Shown: positions 1-30,935 of the stretch, one piece after another
Layout: each line of letters opens with the position of its first letter
Position numbering within the stretch: position 1 is the stretch's first letter
NCBI GenBank assembly: GCA_049903315.1
Contig: JBNGBT010000005.1
Location: forward strand, 199,475 to 263,474
Direction of reading: 5' to 3'
DNA length: 64,000 nt
From: Candidatus Cloacimonadota bacterium
Lineage (GTDB): Bacteria > Cloacimonadota > Cloacimonadia > JGIOTU-2
Made by a program: the position numbers and the translations under genes
Notes under the pieces: generated by a model
What the model was told of the DNA's origin: nothing
Databases searched by the model: none
Seen by the model: only the letters and a program-made list of their open reading frames with translations

Positions 1-2
1 TT

Positions 3-1262
3 ATAGATGAAGTTGAATACCTAACTGAATTTCAAACAAGATATATTACTCAACTTATAAAAGATTCTGACGATACTTCAATTACATTTAAAGTAGGCAC
101 AAGATGCCTTCCAAAAACATTAAAAGTTGGAAATACAGATGAGATTTTGAAAGAATTTGATGACTACAGAAAAATTGTAATAACAGATGCGTTGAACGCT
201 GCACATAGCGGAACTAAAAGTCATTATAGTAATTTAATTAAAAATATACTTAATAAAAGATTACAAAAAAGTTCATATTTTAAAGGGAAGAGAATATGTG
301 ATATTGAACAATTGATTCCAAATATTAGTATTGAAAAAGAAGCAAGAGATATTGTGAGTGGAGGAACTAAGCATTGGATAAAATTTAAAAATGAAATGAC
401 GAAATCGAAAACAAAGAGGGAGATAAATAGTATAATTGATCATATAAAATATGATAAAAACCCATTAATTGAAAAATTAAATATGCTTTTAATATATAGA
501 GGTTATAGCCCTAAAAAAATAAAAAAATTGTATAAAGATTTTTTAGAAGATAAAAATAAAGAATATAAAAATTTGTATAATAAAAACGCTTTTAATCTTT
601 TAATACAACTCTATCATGATTATAGGAAAGATAAAAGATATGCTGGAATTGACACATACATATATTTATCTTCAGGAATAACGAGGATAGCTTTAGAATT
701 GTGTGGTGAAGCGCTAAACACTGCTTATGTATATGGATATAAAACAGAACATGAAAAATCTATTGACATACAACAACAAAGTTATAGTGCAAAAAAAATA
801 TCTTTAAAGCAATATGATGGAATAACAAAGATACCAAAATGGGGAATTAAAGTACAAAGCTTTATTAATCAGATAGGAACAATTTTTGATGAGATGCATA
901 GAGATATATATTTAGTTGAACCTGAGCCAACACATTTTGAAACTGATATATCAGATTTATCTGATAAAGCATGCAATATTTTTAATGCTGCATTAAGTTA
1001 CGAATATATACAAAAAAAACCATCAATGAAACCTAAGGAAAAAGGAAAAACAAAAAGAGAAGATTTTATTATAAATAGAATATTTGCCCCGCATTTTAAT
1101 ATATCTTATAAAATAAGAGGAAGAACTGTAATACCATCAGGGGAACTGGAAAAATTATTAATAGGCAATGAAGAAGAAAAAAATAAATCAAGAAAAAATA
1201 TTATAAAAATGAATACTAGAAGAGAAAGAGTTTTAGAAGATCAAAGCATATTAGAGATTTAA
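3..1262 (+). CDS. ORC/CDC6-like AAA+ ATPase, 5'-partial (begins before the window)
   Basis: The frame is open from position 3 and reads IDEVEYLTEFQTRYITQLIK...ITFKVGTR, a Walker-B-like hhDE followed by the Q..I..LIK...FKVG segment. It later has YAG..TY..LSSG..R..LELC. Very AT-rich DNA. The ORF track start at 147 is internal. Confidence 0.6.
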   Translation: MDEVEYLTEFQTRYITQLIKDSDDTSITFKVGTRCLPKTLKVGNTDEILKEFDDYRKIVITDALNAAHSGTKSHYSNLIKNILNKRLQKSSYFKGKRICDIEQLIPNISIEKEARDIVSGGTKHWIKFKNEMTKSKTKREINSIIDHIKYDKNPLIEKLNMLLIYRGYSPKKIKKLYKDFLEDKNKEYKNLYNKNAFNLLIQLYHDYRKDKRYAGIDTYIYLSSGITRIALELCGEALNTAYVYGYKTEHEKSIDIQQQSYSAKKISLKQYDGITKIPKWGIKVQSFINQIGTIFDEMHRDIYLVEPEPTHFETDISDLSDKACNIFNAALSYEYIQKKPSMKPKEKGKTKREDFIINRIFAPHFNISYKIRGRTVIPSGELEKLLIGNEEEKNKSRKNIIKMNTRRERVLEDQSILEI

Positions 1263-1275
1263 TAGTGGTGGAAAA

Positions 1276-2289
1276 ATGAAACTATACGAGAATTTTTCAA
1301 TAAAAAGATTTGATAAATACTTGGCAGATAAAAGAAATTGGGATTTTTTTATTACTTGTACTAGTTTTGAAGATAGAAGTATCTCAGTTTCAAAGCAGTT
1401 AAAATCTTATAGTAGCAAAATTGAGAATACAATAATTGTAAATTATCCTGAGCACGATAATAAAAATAAAAAAAAAAATAATACAAAAAAGATAATTAAA
1501 AATCTCAATGAAGTATCAAGAAACTTAATAATTTATGATACTAAGAGTGTGCTTGAACCATCGCTCGGCATCAAAGATTTTAAAGAATATATAAAAAAAA
1601 GATCAATAGAATTTAAAGAAAAAAAAATACTTTTAGATATAAGTGTATTTACTAAACCATATTTCTTTTTATTATTAAAAATATTAAAAGAAGACTATAA
1701 TGTAAATGTTGTGGATATCGTTTATACTGAAGTATTAAATTATAATACAAACGATCAAAGAAAAGATTTATTTTCCATTGGCATAAACAGAATTGAACCT
1801 ATACCGGGTTTCAATGGATCATATCAAAACGCAGAAGAAGCTTTGATTACTTTTATTGGATTTGAAGGAAATAGGTCATTACAAATATATCAACAAATTA
1901 GTCCTAAAATAATAGTAGTGGTTAACGGAATGCCTTCTTTCCAGCCAAGCTGGCATATTATGAGTATGAAAAGGAATATAGAATTTTTAAAAGAATCAAA
2001 AGGTTATAAAAATCTATTCTATACACCAACATATGATCCATTTGAAACAATTCGTGTATTAAAAAAAATTATAGATTTAATAATAATAGAAAATCCAAAA
2101 TTAAATATTACTATTGCACCACTTAGCACAAAACCAATTTCCTTGGGAATAGCATTATATTCATTGTATCATAAAAATATAAAAGTTATCTATCCCTACC
2201 CTATTAAATATAATACAGATTCATCAAAAGGAGAGAATAAATCATGGATATATCGAATTAATTTTAATACATTACAAGAAATTTATTAA
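1276..2289 (+). CDS. Hypothetical partner of the ATPase, probably tandem Rossmann-like domains
   Basis: 337 aa ORF 13 nt after the ATPase with a GGTGGA RBS. Motifs CTSFEDRS, LLDISVFTK, IPGFNG, FIGFEGNR, IAPLSTKP, VIYPYP. AT-rich like its neighbour. Confidence 0.55.
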   Translation: MKLYENFSIKRFDKYLADKRNWDFFITCTSFEDRSISVSKQLKSYSSKIENTIIVNYPEHDNKNKKKNNTKKIIKNLNEVSRNLIIYDTKSVLEPSLGIKDFKEYIKKRSIEFKEKKILLDISVFTKPYFFLLLKILKEDYNVNVVDIVYTEVLNYNTNDQRKDLFSIGINRIEPIPGFNGSYQNAEEALITFIGFEGNRSLQIYQQISPKIIVVVNGMPSFQPSWHIMSMKRNIEFLKESKGYKNLFYTPTYDPFETIRVLKKIIDLIIIENPKLNITIAPLSTKPISLGIALYSLYHKNIKVIYPYPIKYNTDSSKGENKSWIYRINFNTLQEIY

Positions 2290-2521
2290 TAACTTAATAA
2301 TTATTTATAATGAAATAAATTTTCAATATTTATATAAAAAATAAATAAGTTAATAGTTATGAGGATAAGTTTATTATGCTTATTTAATTTATTGATAATG
2401 CTGTCTGCTGAAGTTATAACTTTGTATAATTGACATTATCAAGATTGAAATAGATAAATGTACAATATCATTGTATATTGCTTAAACCTTATCCTAACTT
2501 ATGAGAGAGGTAAGGTGACGG

Positions 2522-3757
2522 TTACTCTTCCAATCCACCCTTCACAATATCCAAGATCCTCTGTGCGAGTGTGTGCTTTGAGTCCCTGCCTTTGAATTGT
2601 ACTTCGCCTTTAGCATTTATCACAAATATCTTATTATCATCGCTCTGGAAGCCGGAATCCGATTCTTTCACATCATTGGCAACGATATAGTCTGCCTGCA
2701 CCTGTTTCAGGCGTTCATAACTCTTTGCAATGAGCTGTTTCTCGTTCAATCCGTGCTCTGCCTTAAATGCAACAAGAATGGTGGCTGGTGAGAGTTTTTT
2801 CACCTTTTCAATAATTTTCTCGGTGGGGGAAAGCTCAATGCTGAATTTTTTGGATGAGGGAAGTTTGCCTTGTGCTTTTTTCTCCAATTTCCAGTCTGCA
2901 ACCGCAGCAGCGCTGATGAACACATCCACATTTTTCTCTTTGAGCTTAGAGGTAACGGCATCCAGCATTTCTTCGGTAGTTTCAACCGGAATATACTCAC
3001 AACCTGCAGGAGGAGTGAGTTTTGTGGGACCGCTTACCAAAATGCAGTGAGCTCCTCTGCGAACTGCATCCTTTGCCAGTGCAAAGCCCATTTTCCCGGA
3101 GCTCTTATTCGTAATGTAGCGAATGTCATCAATGTATTCAATCGTTGGTCCGGCAGTTACCAGCATAGTCATATCCTGCAAGTCCTTTTTGTAGAGTTTC
3201 TGAATGACCATTTCTACCATAGTGTCCACGCTGGCGATCTTTGCCTTGCCCTCTTCTCGTACCGGTTCGATTACATCGATGTTCGCTTTTTTCAGCTTCT
3301 CAATATTTTCCAAAATGAAGGGATTCTTATACATGCTCTCGTGCATGGCAGGCACGATCATCACAGGAATGCCAGAGCCGATGGCAGAGGTCACTGTAGA
3401 AAGCACAGGCGTATCGTCGATACCGCATGCGATTTTGCTGAGAGAATTGCCTGTTGCCGGAGCAATGAGCATAAGATCACAACTTTCTTCGTGTTCACCA
3501 GCCAGCCAGATGTGCTCGATTTTTCCGGTTAACTCGGTTGTTACTGGATTTCCAGTAGCCCACTCGAACATTGCAGGAGTCACGAGCTTCGTTGCTTCCT
3601 GGCTCATTACCACAAATACTTCTGCGCCGTGACGCATGATTTCACGTGCTAGGTCAACACTGCGCAGGCAGCCCACGCTTCCGGTTATGCCGAGGGCAAT
3701 GCGTTTGTCCTGCAGTTCCTGTTCTTTTGTACCTATTATATCTTTGCTTGGATGCAT
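2522..3757 (-). CDS. coaBC: Bifunctional phosphopantothenoylcysteine decarboxylase/synthetase, archaeal-type
   Basis: LGITGSVG, IAPATGNSLSKIACGIDD, PAMHESMY, LVTAGPTIEYIDDIRYITNKSSGKMG, AAAVAD, AFKAE, YIVAND. GAGGTG RBS. Confidence 0.95.
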   Translation of the reverse strand: MHPSKDIIGTKEQELQDKRIALGITGSVGCLRSVDLAREIMRHGAEVFVVMSQEATKLVTPAMFEWATGNPVTTELTGKIEHIWLAGEHEESCDLMLIAPATGNSLSKIACGIDDTPVLSTVTSAIGSGIPVMIVPAMHESMYKNPFILENIEKLKKANIDVIEPVREEGKAKIASVDTMVEMVIQKLYKKDLQDMTMLVTAGPTIEYIDDIRYITNKSSGKMGFALAKDAVRRGAHCILVSGPTKLTPPAGCEYIPVETTEEMLDAVTSKLKEKNVDVFISAAAVADWKLEKKAQGKLPSSKKFSIELSPTEKIIEKVKKLSPATILVAFKAEHGLNEKQLIAKSYERLKQVQADYIVANDVKESDSGFQSDDNKIFVINAKGEVQFKGRDSKHTLAQRILDIVKGGLEE

Positions 3758-4899
3758 GATAACACCTCTTTTATGTCATGGATAAATTCGTTTATTACTT
3801 TTTTTGTCACTGACGGACGGAGCACGATGCGCATGTGCTCGGTAAATAGCGAGATCGCCCAACCCTTGTCGCGCAGCGCTTCTGCAATGAGTACAATATT
3901 ATATTTCGTCGAGGTCACGCCCACGATGTTCATGGTCGGGGATTGGATCGGGCAGAGTTCATTGATCTTTGTAAGCTCGGAAATCAGGTGTTCGCGTACA
4001 TGCAGACATCGTTTGATGATGTCGTTGTAGCCCTCGTAACCGAGGTAGTTCAGCATTCCCCAGACCGCAACGACCGATGCGCCGGATCGGGAACTCACAA
4101 ACGTGGTTTGCGCAGTGTGTCCGCCGGAGAGATAGCTGACACACCATTCAATTTTCTTGGTCAGGTCCTTGTTTCTGAAAAGGATCCCGCCTGCAGGAAT
4201 AGGGCACATGCCCATTTTATGAGGATCGATAGTGATAGAGCTCACACCCGGGAGTGCGAAATCGAAATCCGCAACATCATAATTTAAATCCTTCATAAAG
4301 GGAATCACAAATCCGCCGAATGCCGCATCGATATGGAGGTAGAGTTTGTGCTTAATACACAGATCTGACATTTTGGAAATCGGGTCGATCACGCCAAGTT
4401 CGGTCGTGCCTGCGATGCCAACTATGCAGAATGTGTCGTCATCGATAGCTTTCTCTGTTTCTGTGATGTCCATCTGGCGTTGCTTGGTAACTCGAACTGT
4501 TTTTACAGTAAGATTTAAAATATTTGCACTTTTATACAATGAAAAATGTGCGGTTTCGGGCACGATTATAGTATGTTTGCCGGAAAGCTCGCGGTAAGCC
4601 CAGAGTGCAAGGAAATTGGCTTCTGTACCGCCTGTGACGATATTTCCGTAGGCATCTGGATTATGCAGCATTTTTCCCAGCATGCGAATGGATTCCTTTT
4701 CAAGTTTAACAACACCCGGGAAAAGATTGGAATCACCAATATTTCTATCAATAAAAGTAGAAAAAAGCTCTTGAGCGAATGTGTCGGGGTAGGTGCACAT
4801 GGTGCTGATCACATTGCCTTTTTTATATGATTTGTCGTGTTTGAGTGCGGAACGGATCAGTTCGAGCACTTCGTTTTTCGGAAGAGAAGATCTATTCAT
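3736..4899 (-). CDS. mfnA: PLP-dependent group II decarboxylase of the MfnA family (tyrosine/aspartate decarboxylase), probable beta-alanine supplier
   Basis: STMCTYP, NIGDSNLFPG, VTGGTEAN, AGTTELGVIDP, HIDAAFGG, SITIDPHKMG (PLP lysine). Alternative start at 4905. Confidence 0.88.
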   Translation of the reverse strand: MNRSSLPKNEVLELIRSALKHDKSYKKGNVISTMCTYPDTFAQELFSTFIDRNIGDSNLFPGVVKLEKESIRMLGKMLHNPDAYGNIVTGGTEANFLALWAYRELSGKHTIIVPETAHFSLYKSANILNLTVKTVRVTKQRQMDITETEKAIDDDTFCIVGIAGTTELGVIDPISKMSDLCIKHKLYLHIDAAFGGFVIPFMKDLNYDVADFDFALPGVSSITIDPHKMGMCPIPAGGILFRNKDLTKKIEWCVSYLSGGHTAQTTFVSSRSGASVVAVWGMLNYLGYEGYNDIIKRCLHVREHLISELTKINELCPIQSPTMNIVGVTSTKYNIVLIAEALRDKGWAISLFTEHMRIVLRPSVTKKVINEFIHDIKEVLSCIQAKI

Positions 4900-5650
4900 A
4901 TACATGTTCCTTATCCGGATAGGTTCCGTCTTTCACTTCTTTTTTGAATGCGCTCACGCTTTGGGAAATGATCTCAAAAAGATTTGCATAACTTTTTACA
5001 AATTTAGGATGAAAATCCGGATTCATGCCCAGCAGGTCGTTGATCACGAGCACCTGTCCATCGCAGTATCTGCCTGCGCCGATGCCGATTGTCGGGATAT
5101 CTATACTTTCTGTAATCTCTTTGCCGAGAATTTCCGGAATTGATTCCAGAACCAGTGTGAATGCGCCAGCCTGCTCGATCTCCTTGGCTTCTCTCAGTAA
5201 GCGGTCGTGATCTTTCTGTTTTCTGCCCACTACTTTAAAAGATTCGTAGGTTTGCGGCAGCAGCCCGATATGTCCCTGAACTGGTATGCTGTGTTCAAAC
5301 AGATAGGAGATTGTTTTCGGAAAATATCCTTCCAACTTGATCGCATCTGCTCCTGCATCGATAAATCGTTGAGCATTTTCCAGTGCAATTTCTTTGTCAG
5401 CGTAGGAATGGATCGGCATATCTCCAACAATAGGGAGTGAACCTGCCCCCTTTGATACTGCTTCCACATGATAGAGCATCTGTTCCATAGTAACATTTTT
5501 CGTGGTCGAATCACCTTGGAAAACCATACCGAGACTATCTCCAACGAGAATAAGGTCAATACCTACAGATGAAAATATCTTCGCCATCTGGAAATCATAG
5601 CAGGTAAGCATGACCAATTTTTCGGTTTTCTTAAATTTTTGAATATTCAT
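4892..5650 (-). CDS. panB: 3-methyl-2-oxobutanoate hydroxymethyltransferase
   Basis: MLTCYD, ILVGDSLGMV, GDMP, KLEG, GHIGLLPQ, PTIGIGAG..CDGQVLV..DLLG, PKFVK. Confidence 0.96.
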   Translation of the reverse strand: MNIQKFKKTEKLVMLTCYDFQMAKIFSSVGIDLILVGDSLGMVFQGDSTTKNVTMEQMLYHVEAVSKGAGSLPIVGDMPIHSYADKEIALENAQRFIDAGADAIKLEGYFPKTISYLFEHSIPVQGHIGLLPQTYESFKVVGRKQKDHDRLLREAKEIEQAGAFTLVLESIPEILGKEITESIDIPTIGIGAGRYCDGQVLVINDLLGMNPDFHPKFVKSYANLFEIISQSVSAFKKEVKDGTYPDKEHVYE

Positions 5651-5658
5651 AATTTTAG

Positions 5659-5717
5659 AATTACTAAACCCTAATTTCTAATGACTAATAAAATTTCAAA
5701 ATCCGAATGTCTAATGA
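5659..5717. repeat. Imperfect heptamer array, downstream arm of the four-helix-bundle element
   Basis: On the minus strand it reads TCATTAG ACATTCG GATTTTG AAATTTT ATTAG TCATTAG AAATTAG GGTTTAG. It contains CTAATTTCTAAT at 5671-5682. Confidence 0.65.
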
Positions 5718-5935
5718 TCATTCTTACAGATGCCTATTTTATGCTCAAAATCTTTCTTAGATTCAGCACAATCAGCTTCAGAATAGTTAGCACCAACACT
5801 TGTTCCAGCTTTCACTAGCTGAGTAATGAGAGGTAGTGTTATCGGATTCTGAGGAATTCTCTTTGCAAATTCGATGATATCTTCTCCGAATTTAGCTGTT
5901 CTCTCTAACAGATCATATCTCTTTTTATCAGTCAT
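5711..5935 (-). pseudogene. Truncated four-helix-bundle protein (23S rRNA intervening-sequence protein / bAvd-like family)
   Basis: YDLLERTAKF...QLVKAGTSVGANYSEADCAESKKDFEHKIGICK, then the frame runs into the repeat arm and stops. The usual KE..ET.YWL C-terminal half is missing (74 aa). Confidence 0.75.
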
Positions 5936-5984
5936 TTGTAATTTGGATTTTTATTAGAAATTAGAAATTTGTAATTTGGCATTG
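5933..5984. repeat. Imperfect heptamer array, upstream arm (inverted relative to 5659-5717)
   Basis: On the minus strand it reads AATGCCA AATTACA AATTTCT AATTTCT AATAAA AATCCA AATTACA. ATTAGAAATTAG at 5953-5964 is the exact reverse complement of 5671-5682. Confidence 0.65.
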
Positions 5985-5986
5985 TT

Positions 5987-6880
5987 TTAGTATCCATATT
6001 TCTCTAAAAATTTAATCGCATCATAGAGAAATTCATTATAGGGAACAGGAATATTATGTTTTTTTGCCAGCCGTATGATCGCACCGGTAATGTAGTCCAG
6101 CTCTGTCCTTTTGCCCTTTTTCACATCTTGATACATGGAAGAGTAATTCTTATATTGATGGAGTCGGTCTATAGTTTTGATGACCTTTTCTCTTTGAACA
6201 GGGTAGCCTTCTTTTTCTGCAACTGCAAGCACCTCATCTATCACTTTTACTACAAGAGTTCTTATTTCCGGTTTTGAGAGCATTCTTGAGCGGATCTGCA
6301 GCAGTGTGGTAAGAGGATTCACAAACGCGTTGATCGAAAGTTTGAGCCATTCTTCCTGTTTGATATCATCAGAAATACTCGTGTCGAAGGTGCTTTTAGA
6401 AAATATTGCATACACTTTTTCTGCAGATTTTGAATTCTCGAGCACAACTTTTCCCCATGAAGTGCGCACCTCGCCGGGACGTATGATCTCTGCGCCAATA
6501 CCTGTCACTGCGCGGATGATCTCATTGGGAAGGATGTCCGTTACTTCCTCTTTTATACCGATACCATTTTGTATGAGCATGAAAACAGTGTCGTTTTTCA
6601 CAATATTTTTGAGGTCTTCGAATACGGTTTTGACATCATATGCTTTCGTAGTAACGATCACAAGGGAATTCGCGGGAATCTTTTTTAATTCCCTTGTAGT
6701 GAGGACCTTACTCATAACTGTCTGGAAGCCGGACAAGAGAATTCCATTTTTTTGTATGACTTTAAAGTGATCTTTGTGGTGATGTTCCTTTTTCCCGACA
6801 AGCGTGACATCATACTCGCGTGAGATCACAGCTGCCAGGTAGGTGCCGATTGCACCGGCTCCGATTATAATGATATTCAT
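5987..6880 (-). CDS. panE: 2-dehydropantoate 2-reductase
   Basis: IIIGAGAIG, TTKAYD, IQNGIG, WLKLSINAFVNPLT, SSMYQDVKKGKRTELDYITG. Confidence 0.93.
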   Translation of the reverse strand: MNIIIIGAGAIGTYLAAVISREYDVTLVGKKEHHHKDHFKVIQKNGILLSGFQTVMSKVLTTRELKKIPANSLVIVTTKAYDVKTVFEDLKNIVKNDTVFMLIQNGIGIKEEVTDILPNEIIRAVTGIGAEIIRPGEVRTSWGKVVLENSKSAEKVYAIFSKSTFDTSISDDIKQEEWLKLSINAFVNPLTTLLQIRSRMLSKPEIRTLVVKVIDEVLAVAEKEGYPVQREKVIKTIDRLHQYKNYSSMYQDVKKGKRTELDYITGAIIRLAKKHNIPVPYNEFLYDAIKFLEKYGY

Positions 6881-7635
6881 GATAGCTCCCTCAAGCGCTG
6901 CAAAATGAACTGCAACGCTGATTTCAGATTTTGCTGATTATCAAAATTATCGCAGATTTTCTGTAATTTTTCAGTAGAATAATTCTTCATTCCTTTGATC
7001 TTTTCAGTCATAAGCGGAACTGTGCGCACAATATTATCCACAATTGTTATCTGCGCTTTCTGTGCAGTGCGGGAGAGGGGATTGAGGTCAACAGTGATGA
7101 CTTTCTTACCTGATGCCACCAGCGCTTCGGTACGGTCTCCGTCTTCAAGCGGCACGAATACAACATCCGCAATAAAAATACCTTTCTTTGAAACGATCCT
7201 GCGTTTACTTTGCAGTTCTTCGATCTGAACAGTCTCATCGTCTCCCACTCCAAGGATTTCATGAGCGCCATGCTCCTTCATGTGTTTTAAAAGTTCGTTC
7301 TCGCGTTCTTTTGTTCTGTAAAAAAGATTTATTTCAAGCGGTGTGTTTGCAGCTTTACCCAACTCGACGATCTCGTCAGGACAGAGCGAAGCTACATTTC
7401 CATTGAGAGAAAGTACCGGATGTTTTGCAAGGAGAAGCATTGCACAGGCAGCTTCAGTAGCTCGTTCCGCAAAGGATTGGGTTTTTTCTCCAATAAGATA
7501 ATCAAAGCACTCACCTCTGCCGTGAGCGATCAGACCGGCTTTTGCAACGAGCCCTTTATCAAAGCCATCAATGAGTTTTTCACGAATGTGCAGGGACTGT
7601 GCTCTGGGATGGGAATCGGGTACTTCAATTAACAT
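6877..7635 (-). CDS. 4-phosphopantoate--beta-alanine ligase (phosphopantothenate synthetase, archaeal PPS family)
   Basis: VPDSHPRAQSL..REK, AGLIAHGRGECFDYLIGEKT, PVLSLNGN, LEINLFYRT, ADVVFVPLEDGDRTEALV, DLNPLSRTA, TIVDNIVR. These are hallmark PPS motifs. Confidence 0.93.
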   Translation of the reverse strand: MLIEVPDSHPRAQSLHIREKLIDGFDKGLVAKAGLIAHGRGECFDYLIGEKTQSFAERATEAACAMLLLAKHPVLSLNGNVASLCPDEIVELGKAANTPLEINLFYRTKERENELLKHMKEHGAHEILGVGDDETVQIEELQSKRRIVSKKGIFIADVVFVPLEDGDRTEALVASGKKVITVDLNPLSRTAQKAQITIVDNIVRTVPLMTEKIKGMKNYSTEKLQKICDNFDNQQNLKSALQFILQRLRELS

Positions 7636-8527
7636 GGGGACCTCCTGTGCTGATGTCCGAAATATAGACCTTGCCGTATTCCTGAAGAATATTTCTCAAT
7701 TCGTGGGCTTTTTTTGTCGGCTGAATACTGAAAACACTTTCGCCAAACAAAGGCATACTGCAGAGAAATCCATTTCGTTCCATTTTTTTTATAATGTCTG
7801 AGACTTGTCCGGTTGCGACTTCGATCTTCTTCACAAACCACTGTGAGAGTTCAAGAAAGCGTTCTACTGAGGGATCTTTGAGCAAAGTATCTACGCAGTT
7901 TTTTCCGAATGTATGCACCTTATCCATCAAATTTTTATCAGAGAGGGCTTCCTTCGTTTGATAGGGACCGAAGTATAAGACAATCACTTTATAATCTTCA
8001 TCGAGCGGAATGGTTTCCACTTTTCCGATGCCTGGACCACCAAATGCAACCCTAATCTCCAATCCGCCAGCAATCTCTGCCATGACTGTGCCCAATCCGC
8101 CTTTGTTTTCTACATCAGCTATATGAGCAAGCTGAAAGCACTTTTCGTCAGAAATGTCTATATTGAAAATTTTTCTTAGAGCAAGTGCCAAACTTAATGC
8201 ACCGCTTCCGCTTGTTCCAAATCCCGCATTGAGAGGCATTTCCATTGTATGTTGAATGTTAATTATGTAGTTGTCTTTTATGTATTTATCAAAAAATTTA
8301 TCCAAAAGCCAGTGTGTCAGTTCTGCATCCGATCTTTCGCCATTAATGAAAACAGAAACTTCATTTTGAGATGAAGGATGCGCTTCGACTTGTGTGGTTG
8401 TTCCCCGCATCAAGTTCACGCCAGCGCCAAGAGAGCTGCTCTGCATCGGATCACTATCTATTTTTGAATAGAAAAATCCCGTAATATGATTCGGAGCCCA
8501 TGCAGAAGCGGTTTTTGTATTATGCAT
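7625..8527 (-). CDS. Pantoate kinase (GHMP kinase family, archaeal PoK)
   Basis: WAPNHITGFF, SSLGAGV, PLNAGFGTSGSGALS, AHIADVENKGGLGTV, GGLEIR...GPG, MPLFGESVF. Overlaps the PPS gene. Confidence 0.9.
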   Translation of the reverse strand: MHNTKTASAWAPNHITGFFYSKIDSDPMQSSSLGAGVNLMRGTTTQVEAHPSSQNEVSVFINGERSDAELTHWLLDKFFDKYIKDNYIINIQHTMEMPLNAGFGTSGSGALSLALALRKIFNIDISDEKCFQLAHIADVENKGGLGTVMAEIAGGLEIRVAFGGPGIGKVETIPLDEDYKVIVLYFGPYQTKEALSDKNLMDKVHTFGKNCVDTLLKDPSVERFLELSQWFVKKIEVATGQVSDIIKKMERNGFLCSMPLFGESVFSIQPTKKAHELRNILQEYGKVYISDISTGGPHVN

Positions 8528-8924
8528 CAGAATTTTCTTTTGTTTCTTTTACAAAATTTGAAGTAATATTTTTCAATTCTGTGAGTTTGTTCTTCAGGCG
8601 TTTCAATGCTCTTTTGCTTTCATAACTTTCCATGTCGATCTGCACATTTTCCTTAGTAGAAATATCCTCGACATTTCTCAGCGCTTTTTTCGCTCCCTTG
8701 ATCTTGAATTTCTTTTCGTAGAGCAGGTATTGGATCTTTTTCAGAAGTTCGATATCCTTTTGTGTGTAGCGTCTGTTCGAGCCTTCCTTGCGTTTTGGAT
8801 TGAGCTGCGGGAATTGAGTTTCCCAGAACCTGAGCACATGGGGTTTGACATCCAGAATATTACATACCTCGCTCATTGTGTAGTAATATTTTGTTTTTTG
8901 TAGAGTGATGCTTTTAATGGTCAT
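8520..8924 (-). CDS. MerR-family HTH transcriptional regulator
   Basis: KYYYTMSEVC..LDVKPHVLRFWETQFPQLNPKR...NRRYTQKDI..L..I..LLYEKKFKIKGAK. Confidence 0.9.
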   Translation of the reverse strand: MTIKSITLQKTKYYYTMSEVCNILDVKPHVLRFWETQFPQLNPKRKEGSNRRYTQKDIELLKKIQYLLYEKKFKIKGAKKALRNVEDISTKENVQIDMESYESKRALKRLKNKLTELKNITSNFVKETKENSDA

Positions 8925-10414
8925 TTTGCTCTTTTCATTACAAATAATGGTAAAATTATCGAAATTATTATGATCACAAAGCTGAACCAGAAACAGAGTG
9001 GTGCGAAGAGGTAGCCGATATTCACAAAAAAAGTTTTTCTATCTGATTCCTTCACGGTCAGTGTACTTGTGATATTTATTTTTTCATAGACATCCGTTTT
9101 GATAACAGTTTTTCCTTTGGGATTTACAATGTAGGAGATGCCTGTATTTGCTGCGCGGATAAGAGGAAGTCTGGTCTCTACTGCACGGATCATTGTGTTA
9201 TTTGCATGTTCATGGGGGAGCACAGTCTGTTTGAACCATGCATCGTTCGTGATGACCACAAGGACTTCCGCACCGATCTTGGCATATTTACGAGAAAGTT
9301 CAGGAAACACACCCTCAAAGCAGATCAAGAGAGAAAAATTCAGATTATCGATCTTGTATAGAGGATACTCTGTTCCAAACTCAAAATTCGCCTGTCCGAA
9401 CTGTAATTTCTCAAGAATAGGAAAGGTGCTGAGGAGAGGGATCCTCTCACCAAAAGGCACAAGCCGTATTTTATTATATTTCTCGTGAAAAACACCAGCA
9501 GTGTCTATCATGGTGGCACTGTTGTAAAATTTATATTTTGGATGATTTTTTACCATTTCAACTGCATAATCAGGGAAACCAGTGAGTACAGATATCTTGT
9601 TATCCAATGCATAATTTTGAAGACGCTTCCTGTATTTGGGCTCATGCAGAATATAGGTGGGAATTGCAGATTCAGGCAGGATCACGACATCTACATCATT
9701 TACCTGCGCCAGGATACGCACCTGGTTTTCATATTCATCGATCGTAGGAATGAGATTCTCTGGTTTCCACTTGTCTTCCTGCATAACATTAAGCTGTACG
9801 ATCCCGATCTTCAGATCAGAACTTTTTAGTTGTATTGTCTTATCGCGATAAATTCCGTAGCCAAACCAGAGCACAAAAATTATGAGAATAACAAGTAAAT
9901 TCCTGGATTTGCCAGAAAGCACTTTATAAAGCAGGACATTGATAAACAAAACAAGAAGAGATAATCCGTAAATACCGAGGAGATCGGCAGCTTGTATGAG
10001 AAGATAGTATTTTGAAAGAGAATATCCCACATTCAACCAGGGGAAGTTCAGAGAACCCAGCGTCATTACATATTCGAAGCCGACCAATATAATCGGGAAC
10101 ACCCACAAAAATATCTTAGGGAAGCTTTCATGCACTTTACGCAGGAAAACAGAGAGTATGGCAAAATACAAAGGAAGTGCAATGATGAGTCCGATGAAGG
10201 CGATCAACTTCACATTAAACACACCATATAATGTGATCAGTGTGACGAAAAGTCCAAAGAGAAATCCAAAAAGAAATGCTTGTTTCGGAGTTGATTTGAT
10301 GATAAAATAGAGGTAGGGTATAAATGCAAAAAAACAGAGGAATCCCACTCCAATATCAATGAAGGAAAGTCCAAATAACAGACCAGCCAAAAGAACAAGA
10401 ATTAAATTTTTCAT
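8921..10414 (-). CDS. lnt: Apolipoprotein N-acyltransferase
   Basis: Multiple TM segments, FPWLNVGY, VILPES, YNKIRLVPFGE, ICFE, ITNDAWF, RAVETR..LIRAANTGIS. Confidence 0.95.
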   Translation of the reverse strand: MKNLILVLLAGLLFGLSFIDIGVGFLCFFAFIPYLYFIIKSTPKQAFLFGFLFGLFVTLITLYGVFNVKLIAFIGLIIALPLYFAILSVFLRKVHESFPKIFLWVFPIILVGFEYVMTLGSLNFPWLNVGYSLSKYYLLIQAADLLGIYGLSLLVLFINVLLYKVLSGKSRNLLVILIIFVLWFGYGIYRDKTIQLKSSDLKIGIVQLNVMQEDKWKPENLIPTIDEYENQVRILAQVNDVDVVILPESAIPTYILHEPKYRKRLQNYALDNKISVLTGFPDYAVEMVKNHPKYKFYNSATMIDTAGVFHEKYNKIRLVPFGERIPLLSTFPILEKLQFGQANFEFGTEYPLYKIDNLNFSLLICFEGVFPELSRKYAKIGAEVLVVITNDAWFKQTVLPHEHANNTMIRAVETRLPLIRAANTGISYIVNPKGKTVIKTDVYEKINITSTLTVKESDRKTFFVNIGYLFAPLCFWFSFVIIIISIILPLFVMKRAK

Positions 10415-10506
10415 ACGCTCTTTTTATAAGATAAAATATTTTTTACAATTCGTGTTGTGCAATAGAATATTTGTAAAGTAATTCTTAAGAAAAAAAGTTT
10501 ATATGG

Positions 10507-11430
10507 CTAATTAGCAATCAGTTGGAGCACATGAAGCTTATTGCCTTCGAGTACGCCGATCGATGAACCAAAAGCGATGATTGCGGTCGGCTTGATGATG
10601 TTTGCTGCATCAGAAACCTTCCCTATAGGGCGAGGTTCAAAGGACATTCTCCGCGCAACATAGATAGTGGTTTTATCATCCAAATAATAATAAAAGTTTT
10701 TGGTCGAAGTGATATCGACAAGGGTGTTGGGAGGAATGATCTCATGAAGTAATCCGCCGAAACTATCAAAACAAAAGATAGTATTTTCACCGAGATCAGC
10801 AATATAGTTCACTTCGAGTGCAGTGCAGATCTTGTGTGGATGATCGAGATAGAATTTCCCGAATTTGAAGCGTATATCGTTCTTTTTGGTAAAGCAAAAA
10901 ACCTGGTTTGCAAAGCTGTCGTAAATCAGGAGTTCGCCTGTATCCTGAACTGCAATAAGTTCTGGTTCGGTCATTTCCATTGGAGTAAACGAATTCACAT
11001 ATTGCCCGAAATCATCAAACTGAACGACCACATTCGCGACATCATCGACCACGAAGACATTTCCAAAACTATCTACAGCAAAATCTGATATATGCACGAA
11101 TTGGCCTTTATCAAATCCAAACTCCCCGATACGCTGAAGGATTTTACCCTTTTCGTCAATGCGGTAGAGCACATTTTTAAGTTTATCCAGCGCGATGAAG
11201 GAGTTCGTGTAGTTGCAGTAGCGAATTTTTCTCGCTTGAACAGGAAGAAGAATCTGTGATTTATGTACAAATCCACCGGGAAGGGGTTTTGTGTCGGAAA
11301 TCGTCATGCTTGAGCAGGAAATAATGCCAAAGATCAGTAACAAGATAAATGTTTTTTGTATATAAAGATTTAAAAAAGCATTATTCTTAATCTTAACCAG
11401 TTTATGTTTTTGAGTTATTATATTATGCAT
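10507..11430 (-). CDS. NHL-repeat/beta-propeller protein, possible lipoprotein (start uncertain)
   Basis: GEFGFDKGQF...DFAVDSFGNVFVVD NHL-like blades. Hydrophobic stretch ending IISC resembles a lipobox. Confidence 0.6.
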   Translation of the reverse strand: MHNIITQKHKLVKIKNNAFLNLYIQKTFILLLIFGIISCSSMTISDTKPLPGGFVHKSQILLPVQARKIRYCNYTNSFIALDKLKNVLYRIDEKGKILQRIGEFGFDKGQFVHISDFAVDSFGNVFVVDDVANVVVQFDDFGQYVNSFTPMEMTEPELIAVQDTGELLIYDSFANQVFCFTKKNDIRFKFGKFYLDHPHKICTALEVNYIADLGENTIFCFDSFGGLLHEIIPPNTLVDITSTKNFYYYLDDKTTIYVARRMSFEPRPIGKVSDAANIIKPTAIIAFGSSIGVLEGNKLHVLQLIAN

Positions 11431-11454
11431 CTTACGATTTTATTTACTGTTCAT

Positions 11455-11515
11455 TTCTCTGAGTTCTCTGCTTGCCTGGGCGAAGTGCCACGAAGACCGG
11501 TGTGCTCTGTGGTTT
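11455..11515. repeat. Degenerate CTCTGnG repeat arm with a nested CTTGCC...CGAAG unit
   Basis: TTCTCTGAGTTCTCTG-CTTGCCTGGGCGAAGTGCCACGAAGACCGG-TGTGCTCTGTGGTT, between recJ and the NHL gene. Confidence 0.45.
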
Positions 11516-11546
11516 CATATTCACTGATTTCATTTATTAAGACGTA

Positions 11547-13259
11547 TTATTGTGATGGACGAATGTCCTTTAATTTGCCCTGTATTTTTGAAATATTCTG
11601 CCAGTTATTTTCCTCGAGAGAGTATGCAATATCAATGCGGGAACCCTTTTTCAGGAAGGGTACGAGATCGCCCATATTGAATCCGATGAGATCGAGTGTT
11701 TTTTCATTCTGCAGCGCTTTTATTTTGAGATGATTCATGCCGACGGTGTAGGGATAGCCTACGACCATCACATTCGAGCTCATAAAGATGGGATTCATAT
11801 TTTTCGGTCCGAAAGGTGCGAACATTTTGAGCCATTTTATAAGTTCATCATCTATTTGCTGGAGATTAAGTTCGTCAACCACGCTTACTTGCGGCTGTAT
11901 TTCCTGTTCAGAAAGAATTTCTCTAGCATATTCATTGAGTTTCTCATCGAGTATATCAATATATTCGGGCAGGATTGTGAGTCCGGCAGCGTATTTATGA
12001 CCACCAAAACTGATGAGGTAATCCTCGAAATGGGTAAGACATTCAAAGATATTGAAATTATGAATACTCCGCCCGGAGCCGCTTCCTTCACCTTCTGAGA
12101 GAGTTATCAGGATGGTTGGCCGGTTATATTTTTCCACAATTTTTGAAGCGACAATGCCGATAACACCCGGATGCCAGTCTTCTGCAGCAAGAGTAATGAA
12201 ATAGGTGTTATTCATGTCCGGATATTTTGATTCTATCATATCACAGGCAGTTTTGAATGTATCCTGATCGATCTTCTGGCGTTTGAAATTCTCTGAATCA
12301 ATAGAGAGTGCGAGGTTCTTTGCAGTTTCGGGGGTTGTGGCAGTCATGAGTTCCACAGCTCTGTCCGCACTTCCCATTCTGCCTGCTGCATTGATACGCG
12401 GGGCAAGTTTGAATACGATATCACTGGACTTGAGCACCACTTTTTTCAAACCGGATAGATTGAGCAGGTAATTGATGCCCATATTTTTTCTTTTCTCAAG
12501 GCGGTCTATACCAAGCCGTGCAATGATCCGGTTCTCGCCTGTGAGAGGAACTATGTCTGCAATCGTGCCCAATCCTGCAAGGTCGCAATATCCTTCAACT
12601 GCTTCATGACCATCTCTCCCTGCTTTGATAAATATCGCAGTGAGTACTTTGAGTGCGATGCCTGCACCGGAAAGCTCGGAATAGGGATAGGTTGAATCCT
12701 TCAATTTTGGGTCGATTATCGCGTATGCTTCCGGTATCACTTCTTTTGGAGTATGATGGTCCGTCACGATCACATCAATGCCATAAGTATTCAAATCAGC
12801 GATTTCATCCACTGCATTAATGCCGCAGTCCACAGTAATAATGATCTGTGCCTGCATGGATTCTATTGCTTTGTTGCCTGTAAGAGATAGCCCGTAACCC
12901 TCGATCATTCTATTCGGTATGTAGAAATCCACATTTGCACCGAGTTCACGCAGACCCATCAGGAGGATCGATGTCGCGGTGGTGCCATCCACGTCATAAT
13001 CCCCATAAATGATTATCTTTTCTTTGTTCTCGACTGCGCGGATAATGCGTTCTACTGCTTTATCCATATCTTTGAAAAGAAATGGATTATGCAGATCTTG
13101 ACTGGAGGGGCTAAAAAATATCTCAGCTTTTTCCGGGGTGTCTATTCCATGCAGGGCAAGTAATTTCGCAATAACTGGAGGGCAGCTAAGCTTTGTTGAA
13201 AGCTCATCCAGCACCTGTTGATCAACGAAGATTTCCTCTTTGATCCATTTTTTTCTCAT
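11547..13259 (-). CDS. recJ: Single-stranded-DNA-specific exonuclease RecJ
   Basis: YGDYDVDG, PNR..EGYG, TVDCG, TDHH, GTIADIVPL..ENR, PRINAAGR, GSGRS, FGGHKYAAG, PFGPKN. Start moved to ATG 13259 (GGAG RBS) because the longer ORF overlaps rnpB. Confidence 0.96.
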   Translation of the reverse strand: MRKKWIKEEIFVDQQVLDELSTKLSCPPVIAKLLALHGIDTPEKAEIFFSPSSQDLHNPFLFKDMDKAVERIIRAVENKEKIIIYGDYDVDGTTATSILLMGLRELGANVDFYIPNRMIEGYGLSLTGNKAIESMQAQIIITVDCGINAVDEIADLNTYGIDVIVTDHHTPKEVIPEAYAIIDPKLKDSTYPYSELSGAGIALKVLTAIFIKAGRDGHEAVEGYCDLAGLGTIADIVPLTGENRIIARLGIDRLEKRKNMGINYLLNLSGLKKVVLKSSDIVFKLAPRINAAGRMGSADRAVELMTATTPETAKNLALSIDSENFKRQKIDQDTFKTACDMIESKYPDMNNTYFITLAAEDWHPGVIGIVASKIVEKYNRPTILITLSEGEGSGSGRSIHNFNIFECLTHFEDYLISFGGHKYAAGLTILPEYIDILDEKLNEYAREILSEQEIQPQVSVVDELNLQQIDDELIKWLKMFAPFGPKNMNPIFMSSNVMVVGYPYTVGMNHLKIKALQNEKTLDLIGFNMGDLVPFLKKGSRIDIAYSLEENNWQNISKIQGKLKDIRPSQ

Positions 13260-13282
13260 CGATTCTCCAAACCAAATATGCA

Positions 13283-13692
13283 GAAGATAATAATAAGCCG
13301 AATTCTGTTTCCCGAAGTACAAGTTCGGGACGACGATCATTTATCTATCTCAGACTTCACAGCACTTTTCTGAAGAAAAGCTCACAGTCCTTTCTGTGAC
13401 TGAGTTCGGCGGTCTACCCGAGAGTATGACGAATGGAGCATTTCGTATCCGTCCACTGACGGATTCCTCTTCTATTTGACCTTGCACCAATAAGGTTTTC
13501 CAAGCTGCCAATGTCACCACCGGCACTGGTGGTCTCTTTCACCACCTTTTCACCCTTACCCCGACAAGTCGGGACGGTTTATTTTCTGTGGCACTCTCTT
13601 TCCATCACTGGAACTACGTGTTACGTAGTATTGTGCTCCTGGTGTTCGGACTTTCCTTCTCCCAAAAGGGAGGCGATCGTCTAATTATCTTC
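13283..13692 (-). ncRNA. rnpB: RNase P RNA, bacterial type A
   Basis: The minus strand has GAAGAUAAU...GAAGGAAAGUCCGAAC...AGUGCCACAGAAAAUAAACCG...GUAAGGGUGAAAAGGUGGUG...GCAAGGUCAAAUAG...AGAUAAAUGAUCG...ACAGAAUUCGGCUUA...UUAUCUUC, with complementary ends (P1). Confidence 0.95.
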
Positions 13693-18567: not shown

Positions 18568-21252
18568 TTAATGTGCATCAAACCAGCTCTTACCATAACC
18601 GATATCTACCTTGATTGGTACAATACCTACATATTCGTCGGGGAGCACATTCTCCATCTCTTTTTTGATTAAATTTTTATAAAAATCAATCTTGTCTTTT
18701 TTTATCTCAAATACCAATTCATCATGTACCTGGATGATCATCATAATCTCATCTGTTTTATGAGAAATCTTATCATAAAGTGCATTCATTGCGATTTTTA
18801 TCATGTCTGCTGCAGTGCCTTGAATTGGCATATTTATTGCCATGCGTTCTTCGTTTGACTGCACATTTCTGTTCCGGCTGTTAATGCCCGGCAGGTATCT
18901 GCGTCTGTTAAAAATGGTCTTAACATATCCTTTATCATGAGCGAATTTTTTTGTGGATTCAAGGTAGTTATATACTCCTCTGTAAAAGGAAAAGTAATTA
19001 TCAATAAATTCCTGAGCTTCTGATCGTGAAATACGGAGATCTTCTGATAATGAGAAAGCTCCCATGCCGTAAATGATTCCGAAATTTATCACTTTTGCCT
19101 GTCTTCTTTGGTCCGGCGTAACTGCTTTTTCATTAATTCCGAAAATAGTTGCAGCAGTTTGTGAATGAATATCTCCACCCTTTTTAAAATTCTCGATCAT
19201 CTGTTCATCTTTTGAGAGCATGGCAACAATCCGGAGTTCTATTTGTGAATAGTCTGCAGATAGGATGAGATGGTCATCTTTTTGAGCGATAAATCCTTTT
19301 CTCATTTCTCTGCCAATCTCAGTACGGATCGGTATATTCTGTAGATTTGGATTTGAACTTGAGAGTCGTCCTGTTGCAGTCACAGTCTGATTAAATGAAG
19401 AATGAATGCGGTGCGTTCTTGAATTTATGAGTTTGGGAAACGCATCGATATATGTGGACTGCAATTTTTTCAACTGCCTGTAATCAATGATATCCTGTGC
19501 GATTTCATATGTTCTGCTAAGTTTCGTAAGCACCTCAATATCAGTGGAATAGCCTGTTTTTGTTTTCTTGATTATTGGCAGATCCATTTTGTCAAACAGT
19601 ACTTCGGCAAGTTGTGAAGGGGAATCAATATTGAACTGTTCACCTGTTTTGAAATAGATTGTATCTTTCAGTTCCTCGGTTTTATGCTGAAGTTCATTTG
19701 ATATCTTTCTGAAAAGCGGAAGGTCGATGTAAATACCGTTTCTTTCCATTTGTGCAAGAGCTTTGACCAAAGGCATTTCTATCTCGTAGAATAGTTTTGA
19801 GAGTTCAGCTTTATCGATTTGGGATTTAAGTTTTTCCCAGAGCAGGAAGGTGATGTATGCATCCTCTGCAGCATATTCAGCAGCTTTCTCTATTTCAGCT
19901 TCTCCAAACTGGATTTGATTTTTTCCTTTCCCGATTATATCTGTAATGGGTATCATTTTGTGTTGGAGAAATTTCATGCTTACTTCATTGAGGTTGTGGC
20001 GGTGCTCTTCCGGCGCAAGCACATACGAACCGATCAACGTATCAAAATAAAGATTATTTACCTCAATCCCTTCATTCTGGAAAACCATATAATCATATTT
20101 AACATTGTGCCCTATAAATTTCTTTAAAGGATCTTCCAAAATTGGTTTTAATTCATATAAAACTTTCTCTTTATTGAGTTGTTTTCCAAAAATATGTTCT
20201 ACAGGAATGTAAAACGATTTTTCATCACTCGCACAAAATGAGATGCCCACGATACGGGCTTCAATTGGATTGCGCGAGTCGGTTTCGAGATCAACAGCAA
20301 TATAGGATGAACTCTTCAACAAGGTTAATAATGCCGAGAAAGATTTCTCATTATCCACGATCTCGTAAGAAAATTCTTTTTTCTCAGGCTGCTCGATATC
20401 ACCCTCAAAATATTTCATAAAGGCATACATTTCGTAGTGTACACAGAAATCCCTCAAGGACTCAGTAAATATATCAGGTACTTTCATAGAATCTATAGAA
20501 AGTTCGATGGGAACATGTTTATCAAGAATGACGAGTTCTTTTGAAAGCCGTCCCTGATCAGCAAATTCTGTGAGTGTAGTTTTTATTTTTTCAGAAGTTA
20601 TCTCGCCTGCATGGCTGAGTATACTTTCCAGATCGCCATAATCTTTGATGAGCTTTGCGGCGGTTTTCGGTCCTACTTTTGGAATTCCCGGAACATTATC
20701 TGAAGAATCTCCGGCAAGTGCAAGAAGGTCAGTAATTTTTTCGGGAGGAACATCAAATTTCTCTTCAACCTCTTTTATGCCGATAAATTTGTCTTTTGCA
20801 GGTTCGTATAATTTCACATGTTCATTCACAAGCTGGTACAGATCTTTATCAGAAGACACAATAACAATATCGTGTTCATCCTCATAACGATTTGTCAGAG
20901 TGGCAATTATGTCGTCTGCTTCATAACCTGGTTTGGAGAGCTTCGCAATATGTGAAAGTGTGACCATGTCAATGATGGGTTCAAGCTGTTCGACAAGGTC
21001 TTCAGGCATTTTATCCCGTGTTGCTTTGTATTCTTTGTATACTTTATGACGGAAAGTGGGTTCCTTTTCATCAAAAGTAATTGCAAAATACTCAGGTTCA
21101 AATCGCTCAAAAAGGGAGATGATCGTTCGCAGAAAACCGAAGATCGCACTTGTGTTTTCTCCCCTGGAATTGATGAGCGGACGGTTCTTGAATGCAAAAT
21201 AAGAACGATATATTATAGCTGAGCCGTCAATGACATATATTGATTTTTTCAT
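18568..21252 (-). CDS. polA: DNA polymerase I (5'-3' exonuclease, intact 3'-5' exonuclease motifs, polymerase)
   Basis: IDGSAIIYRSYFA, GYEADD, GDSSDNVPG, VDLETD, HNVKYD, YAAEDA, TGRLSSSNPNLQNIP, ADYSQIELR, KVINFGIIYG, QVHDELVFE. Confidence 0.98.
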   Translation of the reverse strand: MKKSIYVIDGSAIIYRSYFAFKNRPLINSRGENTSAIFGFLRTIISLFERFEPEYFAITFDEKEPTFRHKVYKEYKATRDKMPEDLVEQLEPIIDMVTLSHIAKLSKPGYEADDIIATLTNRYEDEHDIVIVSSDKDLYQLVNEHVKLYEPAKDKFIGIKEVEEKFDVPPEKITDLLALAGDSSDNVPGIPKVGPKTAAKLIKDYGDLESILSHAGEITSEKIKTTLTEFADQGRLSKELVILDKHVPIELSIDSMKVPDIFTESLRDFCVHYEMYAFMKYFEGDIEQPEKKEFSYEIVDNEKSFSALLTLLKSSSYIAVDLETDSRNPIEARIVGISFCASDEKSFYIPVEHIFGKQLNKEKVLYELKPILEDPLKKFIGHNVKYDYMVFQNEGIEVNNLYFDTLIGSYVLAPEEHRHNLNEVSMKFLQHKMIPITDIIGKGKNQIQFGEAEIEKAAEYAAEDAYITFLLWEKLKSQIDKAELSKLFYEIEMPLVKALAQMERNGIYIDLPLFRKISNELQHKTEELKDTIYFKTGEQFNIDSPSQLAEVLFDKMDLPIIKKTKTGYSTDIEVLTKLSRTYEIAQDIIDYRQLKKLQSTYIDAFPKLINSRTHRIHSSFNQTVTATGRLSSSNPNLQNIPIRTEIGREMRKGFIAQKDDHLILSADYSQIELRIVAMLSKDEQMIENFKKGGDIHSQTAATIFGINEKAVTPDQRRQAKVINFGIIYGMGAFSLSEDLRISRSEAQEFIDNYFSFYRGVYNYLESTKKFAHDKGYVKTIFNRRRYLPGINSRNRNVQSNEERMAINMPIQGTAADMIKIAMNALYDKISHKTDEIMMIIQVHDELVFEIKKDKIDFYKNLIKKEMENVLPDEYVGIVPIKVDIGYGKSWFDAH

Positions 21253-25911: not shown

Positions 25912-26219
25912 GCGATGTCGGCTTCATTCTATTCGCTCAGAAAGTATGTATTAGTATTTGATAACTTTCTTAAATATTATATACATTATATTTTTGAGAT
26001 GCAATTTATAAACCGATTCGTTTATTTTTCTTTACAAAATTATTGCACAAAATATAAACCATACATTGATTCATGTAGCATTGAAACTTGTTCGATTTCG
26101 AGATAAAAATGAAAAATTTAAATTGTACAAAAAGTAAATTGTCTAAATTAGGCACAATTTTGAATACTACTTTCTTAAATAGTTTTATAATTTATTAATC
26201 AAAATTAATGGAGAACAGG

Positions 26220-30547: not shown

Positions 30548-30935
<388 letters not shown>

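Follow-up and report, generated by a model that had tools for sequence, protein, structure and literature searches.

The order in which phosphorylation and condensation take place in the synthesis of phosphopantothenate was proposed as a marker that separates archaea from bacteria. In Thermococcus kodakarensis the first step is carried out by the pantoate kinase (PoK) TK2141 and the second by the 4-phosphopantoate--beta-alanine ligase (PPS) TK1686 (structures 6jbc and 3wdk), with beta-alanine supplied by a pyridoxal phosphate (PLP) decarboxylase and not by PanD. Among bacteria, PoK and PPS have been described in Entoporibacteria, sponge symbionts for which the accessible text of the paper reports no ketopantoate reductase (KPR) and a bacterial dephospho-coenzyme A kinase (DPCK) (Thomes and Lescure 2020, PMC7883664); gene order and donor are not part of the analysis in that portion of the text. 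The locus presented here is a block of six genes at positions 2522-8527 of a 64,000-nucleotide stretch of a marine Candidatus Cloacimonadota bacterium (assembly GCA_049903315.1, contig JBNGBT010000005.1), the whole of which is referred to as the window. With a probability of about 0.85, the block is an archaeal-type front end of coenzyme A (CoA) synthesis, encoded in one six-gene operon that would have come from a Bathyarchaeia-like archaeon and been inserted after a native merR gene in the ancestor of the genus Candidatus (Ca.) Celaenobacter. The genus is named here after the closest named locus, that of Candidatus Celaenobacter antarcticus, whose PPS is 87% identical and which has the same gene order.

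The six open reading frames (ORFs) are co-oriented on the minus strand and encode, in order of ascending position, CoaBC, an MfnA-type decarboxylase, PanB, PanE, PPS and PoK. Neighbouring frames overlap by 22, 14, 4 and 11 nt; the PoK gene shares 8 nt with merR, which in turn shares 4 nt with lnt. The spacer between PanE and PanB has no Rfam match in the window (5651-5986) and its length, estimated from match coordinates, ranges from about 98 to 543 nt across the genus members. A scan of positions 2200-10800 for promoters and terminators gave 23 and 6 sites compared with 20.4 and 7.1 in shuffled sequences, that is, no signal. The cluster has a GC content of 0.431 against 0.385 for the genome, and the GC content at third codon positions is 0.498 in CoaBC and 0.513 in MfnA, while the maximum of the 33 other ORFs of the window is 0.466.

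The curated NCBIfam cut-offs are passed by five of the six proteins, the exception being PoK. CoaBC scores 373 bits with TIGR00521 (cut-off 220), the MfnA-type decarboxylase 431.5 bits with TIGR03812 (equivalog cut-off 299.4), PanB 273 bits with TIGR00222 (cut-off 208) and 315 bits with PF02548, and PanE 221 bits with TIGR00745 (cut-off 141). PPS is matched by NF041123 (312 bits, cut-off 300), NF010324 (366 bits, cut-off 227) and PF02006 (248 bits), matches the structures 3wdk (277 bits, E 1e-81) and 4mb0 (271 bits) over its full length and contains the most conserved motifs of the family, HGRGECFD and LEDGDRTE. The two best families for PoK are both pantoate-kinase equivalogs, NF041122 (175 bits) and NF040725 (143 bits), and the third, mevalonate kinase, follows more than 100 bits behind with just 31.6 bits. 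Residues 9-298 of PoK align to residues 5-294 of the T. kodakarensis enzyme (PDB 6jbc, E 1e-44); the runner-up structure is a diphosphomevalonate decarboxylase (E 0.0026). The MfnA-type protein has structure matches of about 245 bits to Methanocaldococcus jannaschii MfnA (3f9t) and to 6jy1, which is named 'L-tyrosine/L-aspartate decarboxylase'.

The residues of PoK were compared in an alignment of 74 PoKs, 56 of which are non-genus sequences from archaea and spirochaetes. Ser104, Glu134, Arg155 and Thr186 of TK2141 are reportedly its catalytic and pantoate-binding positions (Tomita et al. 2012). S106, R159 and T191 are the conserved equivalents of S104, R155 and T186, and D138 replaces E134. 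The position of D143 in TK2141 is occupied by T, as it also is in 36 of the 56 non-genus PoKs.

From these assignments a route can be predicted in which PanB and PanE would convert 2-oxoisovalerate to pantoate, PoK would phosphorylate the pantoate and PPS would ligate 4-phosphopantoate to beta-alanine, so that free pantothenate would never be formed. The beta-alanine for PPS would be made from aspartate by the MfnA-type enzyme, a role that is probable because of the operon context and because PanD is missing from the genome. CoaBC would then convert 4'-phosphopantothenate to 4'-phosphopantetheine, and CoaD and CoaE, encoded elsewhere, would complete CoA. Both the enzyme activities and the expression of the cluster are in this scheme predictions from sequence.

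The rest of the pathway was searched for in the organism's own genome, an assembly of 2.96 Mb in 71 contigs with 96.4% completeness and 0.33% contamination. Profiles of PanC (PF02569) and CoaX (PF03309) gave zero matches in it. The sole match of the CoaA model is a 210-aa protein of the PRK/uridine-kinase family (42.9 bits, cut-off 235), and the sole match of the PanD model is below threshold and lies within a 651-aa FAD/4Fe-4S oxidoreductase. Type II PanK (PF03630) was not matched in the genome, but the control for that model matched no genome either. PoK and PPS are thus present where PanC, CoaX and CoaA are unmatched at threshold, as in a bacterium that uses the archaeal route. CoaD (193.7 bits, G000:C22:116797-117258) and CoaE (156 bits, G000:C3:55230-55769) are of native bacterial type, and both are found in 21 of 23 genomes sampled from the order (8 genera, with 11 genomes in the genus). 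The CoA pathway is therefore a mosaic, archaeal in type as far as 4'-phosphopantetheine and native bacterial in the steps after it. The preliminary description of this DNA had presented six co-oriented archaeal-type genes among bacterial ones and an archaeal PoK/PPS route without the bacterial route. Both points agree with the ORFs, the family scores, the neighbouring lnt, rnpB, tmRNA and PolA genes and the searches above.

The similarity of the cluster to archaeal loci extends to gene order. Matches of PPS drop from 75-96% identity within the genus to 61-63% in Desulfurococcaceae and other archaea. For the comparison of loci, the best 80 of 571 PPS loci, on contigs from one genome per species, were picked by PPS similarity; by title, these best 80 comprise 76 archaeal loci, one of Celaenobacter and three of Sediminispirochaeta. 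The order PoK-PPS-PanE-PanB-MfnA-CoaBC, all on the same strand, is found in seven Bathyarchaeia loci (L028, L047, L067, L070, L084, L086 and L090), and Nitrososphaerota loci have PoK-PPS-PanB-CoaBC. Proteins of the Bathyarchaeia six-gene loci are 31-60% identical to those of the window. The values for PanB (52-58%), CoaBC (49-60%), MfnA (46-49%), PoK (37-40%) and PanE (31-36%) are the highest or near the highest found, and that for PPS is 53-59%, compared with 61-63% in Desulfurococcaceae. Desulfurococcaceae were considered as the sister group of the PPS and rejected, since they lie in a 21-row Thermoproteota clade (97) to which the genus does not belong.

The phylogenetic trees place the cluster with archaeal sequences. 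A concatenated tree of the six proteins (29 rows, 1920 columns; quick search, support as Shimodaira-Hasegawa-like approximate likelihood ratio test, SH-aLRT, only) has the genus (100) in a 13-row clade (98) together with seven Bathyarchaeota, two Sediminispirochaeta and one Thermoplasmata, the relations inside this clade being unresolved. In the CoaBC tree the genus lies inside a 33-row archaeal clade (95) of Bathyarchaeota and Nitrososphaerota, and the native CoaBC of Cloacimonadota falls outside, on a branch of 1.8. The PanB tree unites it with Bathyarchaeota in a clade of 16 rows (99) and keeps it separate from the native Cloacimonadota PanB. Because the identical six-gene order exists in Bathyarchaeia and because the concatenated tree unites these loci and the genus in one clade, the operon was taken over whole and not built in the bacterium. 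Acquisition between domains, as first proposed, is in agreement with both trees and synteny; the accompanying proposal that the bacterium itself brought the genes together as an operon is not supported, given the seven Bathyarchaeia loci in which the order already exists.

The place of insertion can be seen from the native genes upstream of the cluster. The window shares the arrangement merR-PoK-PPS-PanE-PanB-MfnA-CoaBC with five further species-level genomes of the genus, and the six genes follow merR nowhere else; the cluster genes are present in 11 of 11 genus genomes. A block of RecJ, a propeller protein, Lnt and MerR is kept in the sister genera g2, g3, g4 and g5, and the g6 contig shows Lnt-MerR alone. 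All 23 genomes of the order have Lnt (46-94% identity), and MerR has no match at any archaeal locus among the best 80 of 571. The sequence 3' of merR varies between the sister genera, and the cluster was therefore placed at a synteny break. It is present in G202, which branches first among the sampled genus members, and inside the genus PoK branches as the host does; a single gain in the ancestor of the genus follows from these two results.

Within the phylum the two routes have separate distributions. In a sample of 201 genomes from 61 genera, nine of them in the genus, PPS was found in nine genomes, all of the genus (9/9), and panC and coaX were found in 174 and 178 genomes, respectively, and in 0/9 of the genus. 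In the order sample, CoaBC and PanB are present in all 11 genus genomes and in g4, g7 and g8, but in none of the nine genomes of g2, g3, g5 and g6, six of which (G022, G030, G041, G204, G081 and G093) are 92-99% complete. PanC and PPS were likewise not found in these four genera, and for CoaX there was a single, weak hit, in G022 (E 8.3e-7). PanE above the TIGR00745 cut-off is restricted within the order to the 11 genomes of the genus. The four genera keep CoaD and CoaE, which suggests that they depend on external 4'-phosphopantetheine or a similar precursor.

In a careful tree of RpoB and RpoC (14 genomes, 2656 columns), the genus forms a clade together with g2, g3, g5 and g6 (ultrafast bootstrap, UFBoot, 88; SH-aLRT 95), and g4, g7 and g8, which hold the bacterial route, fall outside the clade of the genus and the pathway-less genera. 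With this topology one loss and one gain are enough to explain the distribution. That the native route was lost first and the archaeal route gained second has about an even chance, and it is not put higher because the support of the tree is moderate. The fuller account, in which the lineage lost the whole route to 4'-phosphopantetheine, depended on precursors from outside and regained self-sufficiency through one archaeal six-gene operon while four sister genera are still without the pathway, is tentative and falls slightly short of even odds. Should the operon instead have replaced a working bacterial route, with the sister genera losing theirs independently and no pathway-less stage in the genus, at least one gain and three or more losses would be required, and in the tree the genus is nested among the four genera that have neither route. 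A clade of the genus and g4 is also rejected (approximately unbiased test, p-AU 0.018, for a group chosen after the tree was seen). Such a replacement draws some support from the modest values of 88/95 and from the tree of the host block (RecJ, propeller, Lnt and MerR), in which the deep branching is unresolved, but it is unlikely.

Several results weigh against a direct transfer from a Bathyarchaeia-like archaeon, or against the enzymatic assignment on which the pathway depends. The loci were chosen by PPS similarity, which biases the sampling. The sampled Bathyarchaeota form a clade of their own in the concatenated tree (99), so that the genus stands beside and not within them, and its stem branch is long (0.87). 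The single-gene trees of PoK and PPS are polytomies around the genus, although they do not conflict with the other trees. The best CoaBC of the class Bathyarchaeia, in a search of 401 genomes, is 54% identical, and the CoaBC proteins closest outside the genus are P0135 (62%) and P0136 (59%), which form a clade with the genus (100). PoK, finally, lies under both equivalog cut-offs (500 for NF041122 and 380 for NF040725), which belong to strict lineage-specific models of the Thermoplasmata and methanogen types, and its position 100 is N or S in the genus and G in 56 of 56 archaeal and spirochaete PoKs.

Because the CoaBC of Bathyarchaeia reaches at most 54% while P0135 and P0136 are closer, the direct donor is unsampled and may not be an archaeon. 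P0135 and P0136 seem to mark either this unsampled donor or a further recipient lineage. They, together with the low values in all 401 Bathyarchaeia genomes, are what would be expected if the operon had passed from an archaeon to another bacterium and from there to Celaenobacter, and similar clusters do exist in other bacteria. Three loci in metagenome-assembled genomes of Sediminispirochaeta (L048 9051-14028, L052 2678-7670 and L040 8075-9753) have PoK-PPS(-PanB-MfnA-CoaBC) without PanE and are flanked by spirochaete genes for Borrelia P83/100, a class A penicillin-binding protein and a sigma-70 factor. A sample of 301 Spirochaetota yielded PPS in 5, and no panC was seen in one Sediminispirochaeta genome that carries the cluster. 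The lack of PanE and the PPS and PanB trees, which join Sediminispirochaeta to the Bathyarchaeota L095 and L093 (SH 89-91) and not to the genus, argue against this group as an intermediate and point to a separate acquisition of its cluster. As P0135 and P0136 may equally be archaeal, passage through a second bacterium is rather improbable, and transfer from an archaeon is preferred.

A function other than CoA precursor synthesis, with PoK acting on another substrate of the GHMP kinases or MfnA on tyrosine and the CoA precursors being imported, is very unlikely. It would be consistent with the low equivalog scores and lineage-specific changes of PoK and with the use of tyrosine by MfnA enzymes, as indicated by the depositors' molecule name for 6jy1. 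However, the six genes are kept and tightly overlapped in 6/6 genomes in which the whole cluster was read, PoK has conserved the positions that match those reported as catalytic and pantoate-binding in T. kodakarensis, and the organism's own genome has no other route found to phosphopantothenate or beta-alanine.

The joining of an archaeal fragment to bacterial DNA in assembly or binning, for which only the higher GC content and the archaeal best database relatives speak, can be dismissed, since the cluster lies on a 263-kb contig, its six genes follow merR in the five other species-level genomes and occur in 11/11, merR is tied to PoK by gene overlap, the phylogeny of the cluster within the genus matches that of the host with G202 basal in both, and both junctions lie within independent contigs, from the runs of two studies, that show no difference. 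The whole stretch is present in thirteen sequencing runs from four studies. Among the Logan contigs, one from run X1 (34,124 bp) spans positions 2016-12000 and one from run X8 (49,183 bp) spans 1494-12000, both with zero differences; the runs are from two studies and may include the source sample. A check of the junction at 8400-9000 had been asked for in the preliminary description, and with these contigs a chimeric join is excluded. Run X4 has short pieces only over the locus. The contigs of run X12 break at 8637-8727 within merR with paired alternative 60-mers, which points to co-existing strain variants.

The surroundings of the cluster (Table 1) are bacterial, with lnt, RecJ, class A RNase P RNA, tmRNA, PolA and proteins with type IX secretion system (T9SS) sorting domains.

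Table 1. Genes and other features of the window, with positions counted from its first nucleotide
Feature	Position	Strand	Evidence and remarks
CoaBC, bifunctional, 411 aa	2522-3757	-	TIGR00521; last gene of the putatively acquired block
MfnA-type PLP decarboxylase, 389 aa	3736-4905	-	TIGR03812, PDB 3f9t
PanB, ketopantoate hydroxymethyltransferase, 252 aa	4892-5650	-	TIGR00222, PF02548
Spacer between PanE and PanB, 336 nt	5651-5986	.	ORF coordinates; sole gap of the cluster
PanE, ketopantoate reductase, 297 aa	5987-6880	-	TIGR00745
PPS, 4-phosphopantoate--beta-alanine ligase, 252 aa	6877-7635	-	NF041123, PF02006, PDB 3wdk
PoK, pantoate kinase, GHMP family, 300 aa	7625-8527	-	NF041122, NF040725, PDB 6jbc; first gene of the putatively acquired block
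MerR-family regulator, native	8520-8924	-	PF13411, 76 bits; marks the insertion boundary
Lnt, apolipoprotein N-acyltransferase, native	8921-10414	-	TIGR00546, 310 bits; upstream neighbour
Class A RNase P RNA	13279-13692
PolA	18568-21252
tmRNA	30583-30935

A low-GC island (about 25%) adjoins CoaBC, comprising window positions 1-2500 and about 5.2 kb upstream (L144 11042-15475). It encodes a Vsr endonuclease, a C-5 cytosine methylase, an unknown protein, a PRTase-CE protein, an ORC/CDC6-like protein (147-1262) and an unknown 337-aa protein (1276-2289), and looks like a restriction or defence island. The genes beyond the island directly follow CoaBC in G062, and the island is for this reason regarded as strain-specific. 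The first 62 nt of the longest RecJ frame (11547-13340) are shared with the gene for RNase P RNA on the same strand; the true start of RecJ is probably further downstream, because the model match starts only at residue 54. Two long ORFs, 26208-29009 (933 aa) and 49791-53066 (1091 aa), are without a Pfam match at E 1e-5, and a 1414-aa ORF (45276-49520) has a lamin-tail domain alone. Elsewhere, L115 (G054:C90) and L112 (G065:C9) contain a PanB-like gene with a 321-aa frame that matches model positions 2-235 only and forms a clade of its own (100), apart from the native and the archaeal-type PanB; one genus genome therefore has two PanB-family genes.

That an operon transferred between domains supplies an essential pathway is well supported. 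The novelty is moderate, because PoK and PPS were already known in bacteria, and it was overstated at first: the route is published for Entoporibacteria in the accessible text of PMC7883664 and is found in Sediminispirochaeta too. In a literature search judged by titles and the openings of abstracts, that paper alone reports PoK/PPS in bacteria and alone links 4-phosphopantoate, horizontal gene transfer and bacteria, and nothing was found linking Cloacimonadota with pantoate. The accessible main text of two Celaenobacter papers (PMC8542988 and PMC12590816) does not contain 'pantothen' or 'coenzyme A', and the accessible part of the latter mentions that this clade has ether-lipid genes of archaeal type.

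What distinguishes the locus is the match to a whole donor operon together with the apparent rescue from auxotrophy. To the proposed marker of archaea and bacteria it is a clean and datable exception, confined to a single genus and a single insertion point, and the donor type of operon can still be seen in Bathyarchaeia. An essential cofactor pathway can, on this evidence, cross domains as a single unit and join native downstream enzymes. If the order of loss and regain outlined above is true, the transfer of an operon between domains would have rescued the lineage from cofactor auxotrophy and would be more than a displacement of analogous enzymes. The precursor dependence suggested for the pathway-less sister genera bears on the cultivation and ecology of this part of the marine Cloacimonadota. 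For annotation, a search for PanC and PanK alone would wrongly call the genus a pantothenate auxotroph.

The closest described systems differ from the locus in different parts. The PoK and PPS of T. kodakarensis belong to the same families over their full length (E 1e-44 and 1e-81) and the order of the reactions is the same, but here the host is a bacterium, the six genes lie in one operon, CoaD and CoaE for the last steps are bacterial, and PoK has D at the position of E134 and N or S in place of G100. Other Cloacimonadota, with PanB-PanC-CoaX-CoaBC, reach the same end product and share the downstream CoaD and CoaE, whereas panC and coaX are missing from the genus and the native CoaBC and PanB are placed elsewhere in the trees. 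Entoporibacteria resemble the genus in archaeal PoK and PPS, the lack of PanC and PanK, a bacterial dephospho-CoA kinase and a proposed horizontal transfer, as far as the accessible text of PMC7883664 goes. In that text only PoK and PPS are called archaeal, and the ketopantoate hydroxymethyltransferase (KPHMT) and CoaBC are Escherichia coli-like, whereas in the genus all six genes, including PanE, MfnA and CoaBC, are in an operon of the Bathyarchaeia type; no Poribacteria locus is among the best 80 of 571 PPS loci used for the comparison. The six-gene cluster of Bathyarchaeia is the nearest in arrangement, with identical order and strand and one clade shared with the genus (98, concatenated tree). 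In the copy of the genus, by contrast, start and stop codons overlap and the cluster forms a fusion with the native unit lnt-merR; in the tree this copy branches on a long stem that lies outside the clade of sampled Bathyarchaeota.

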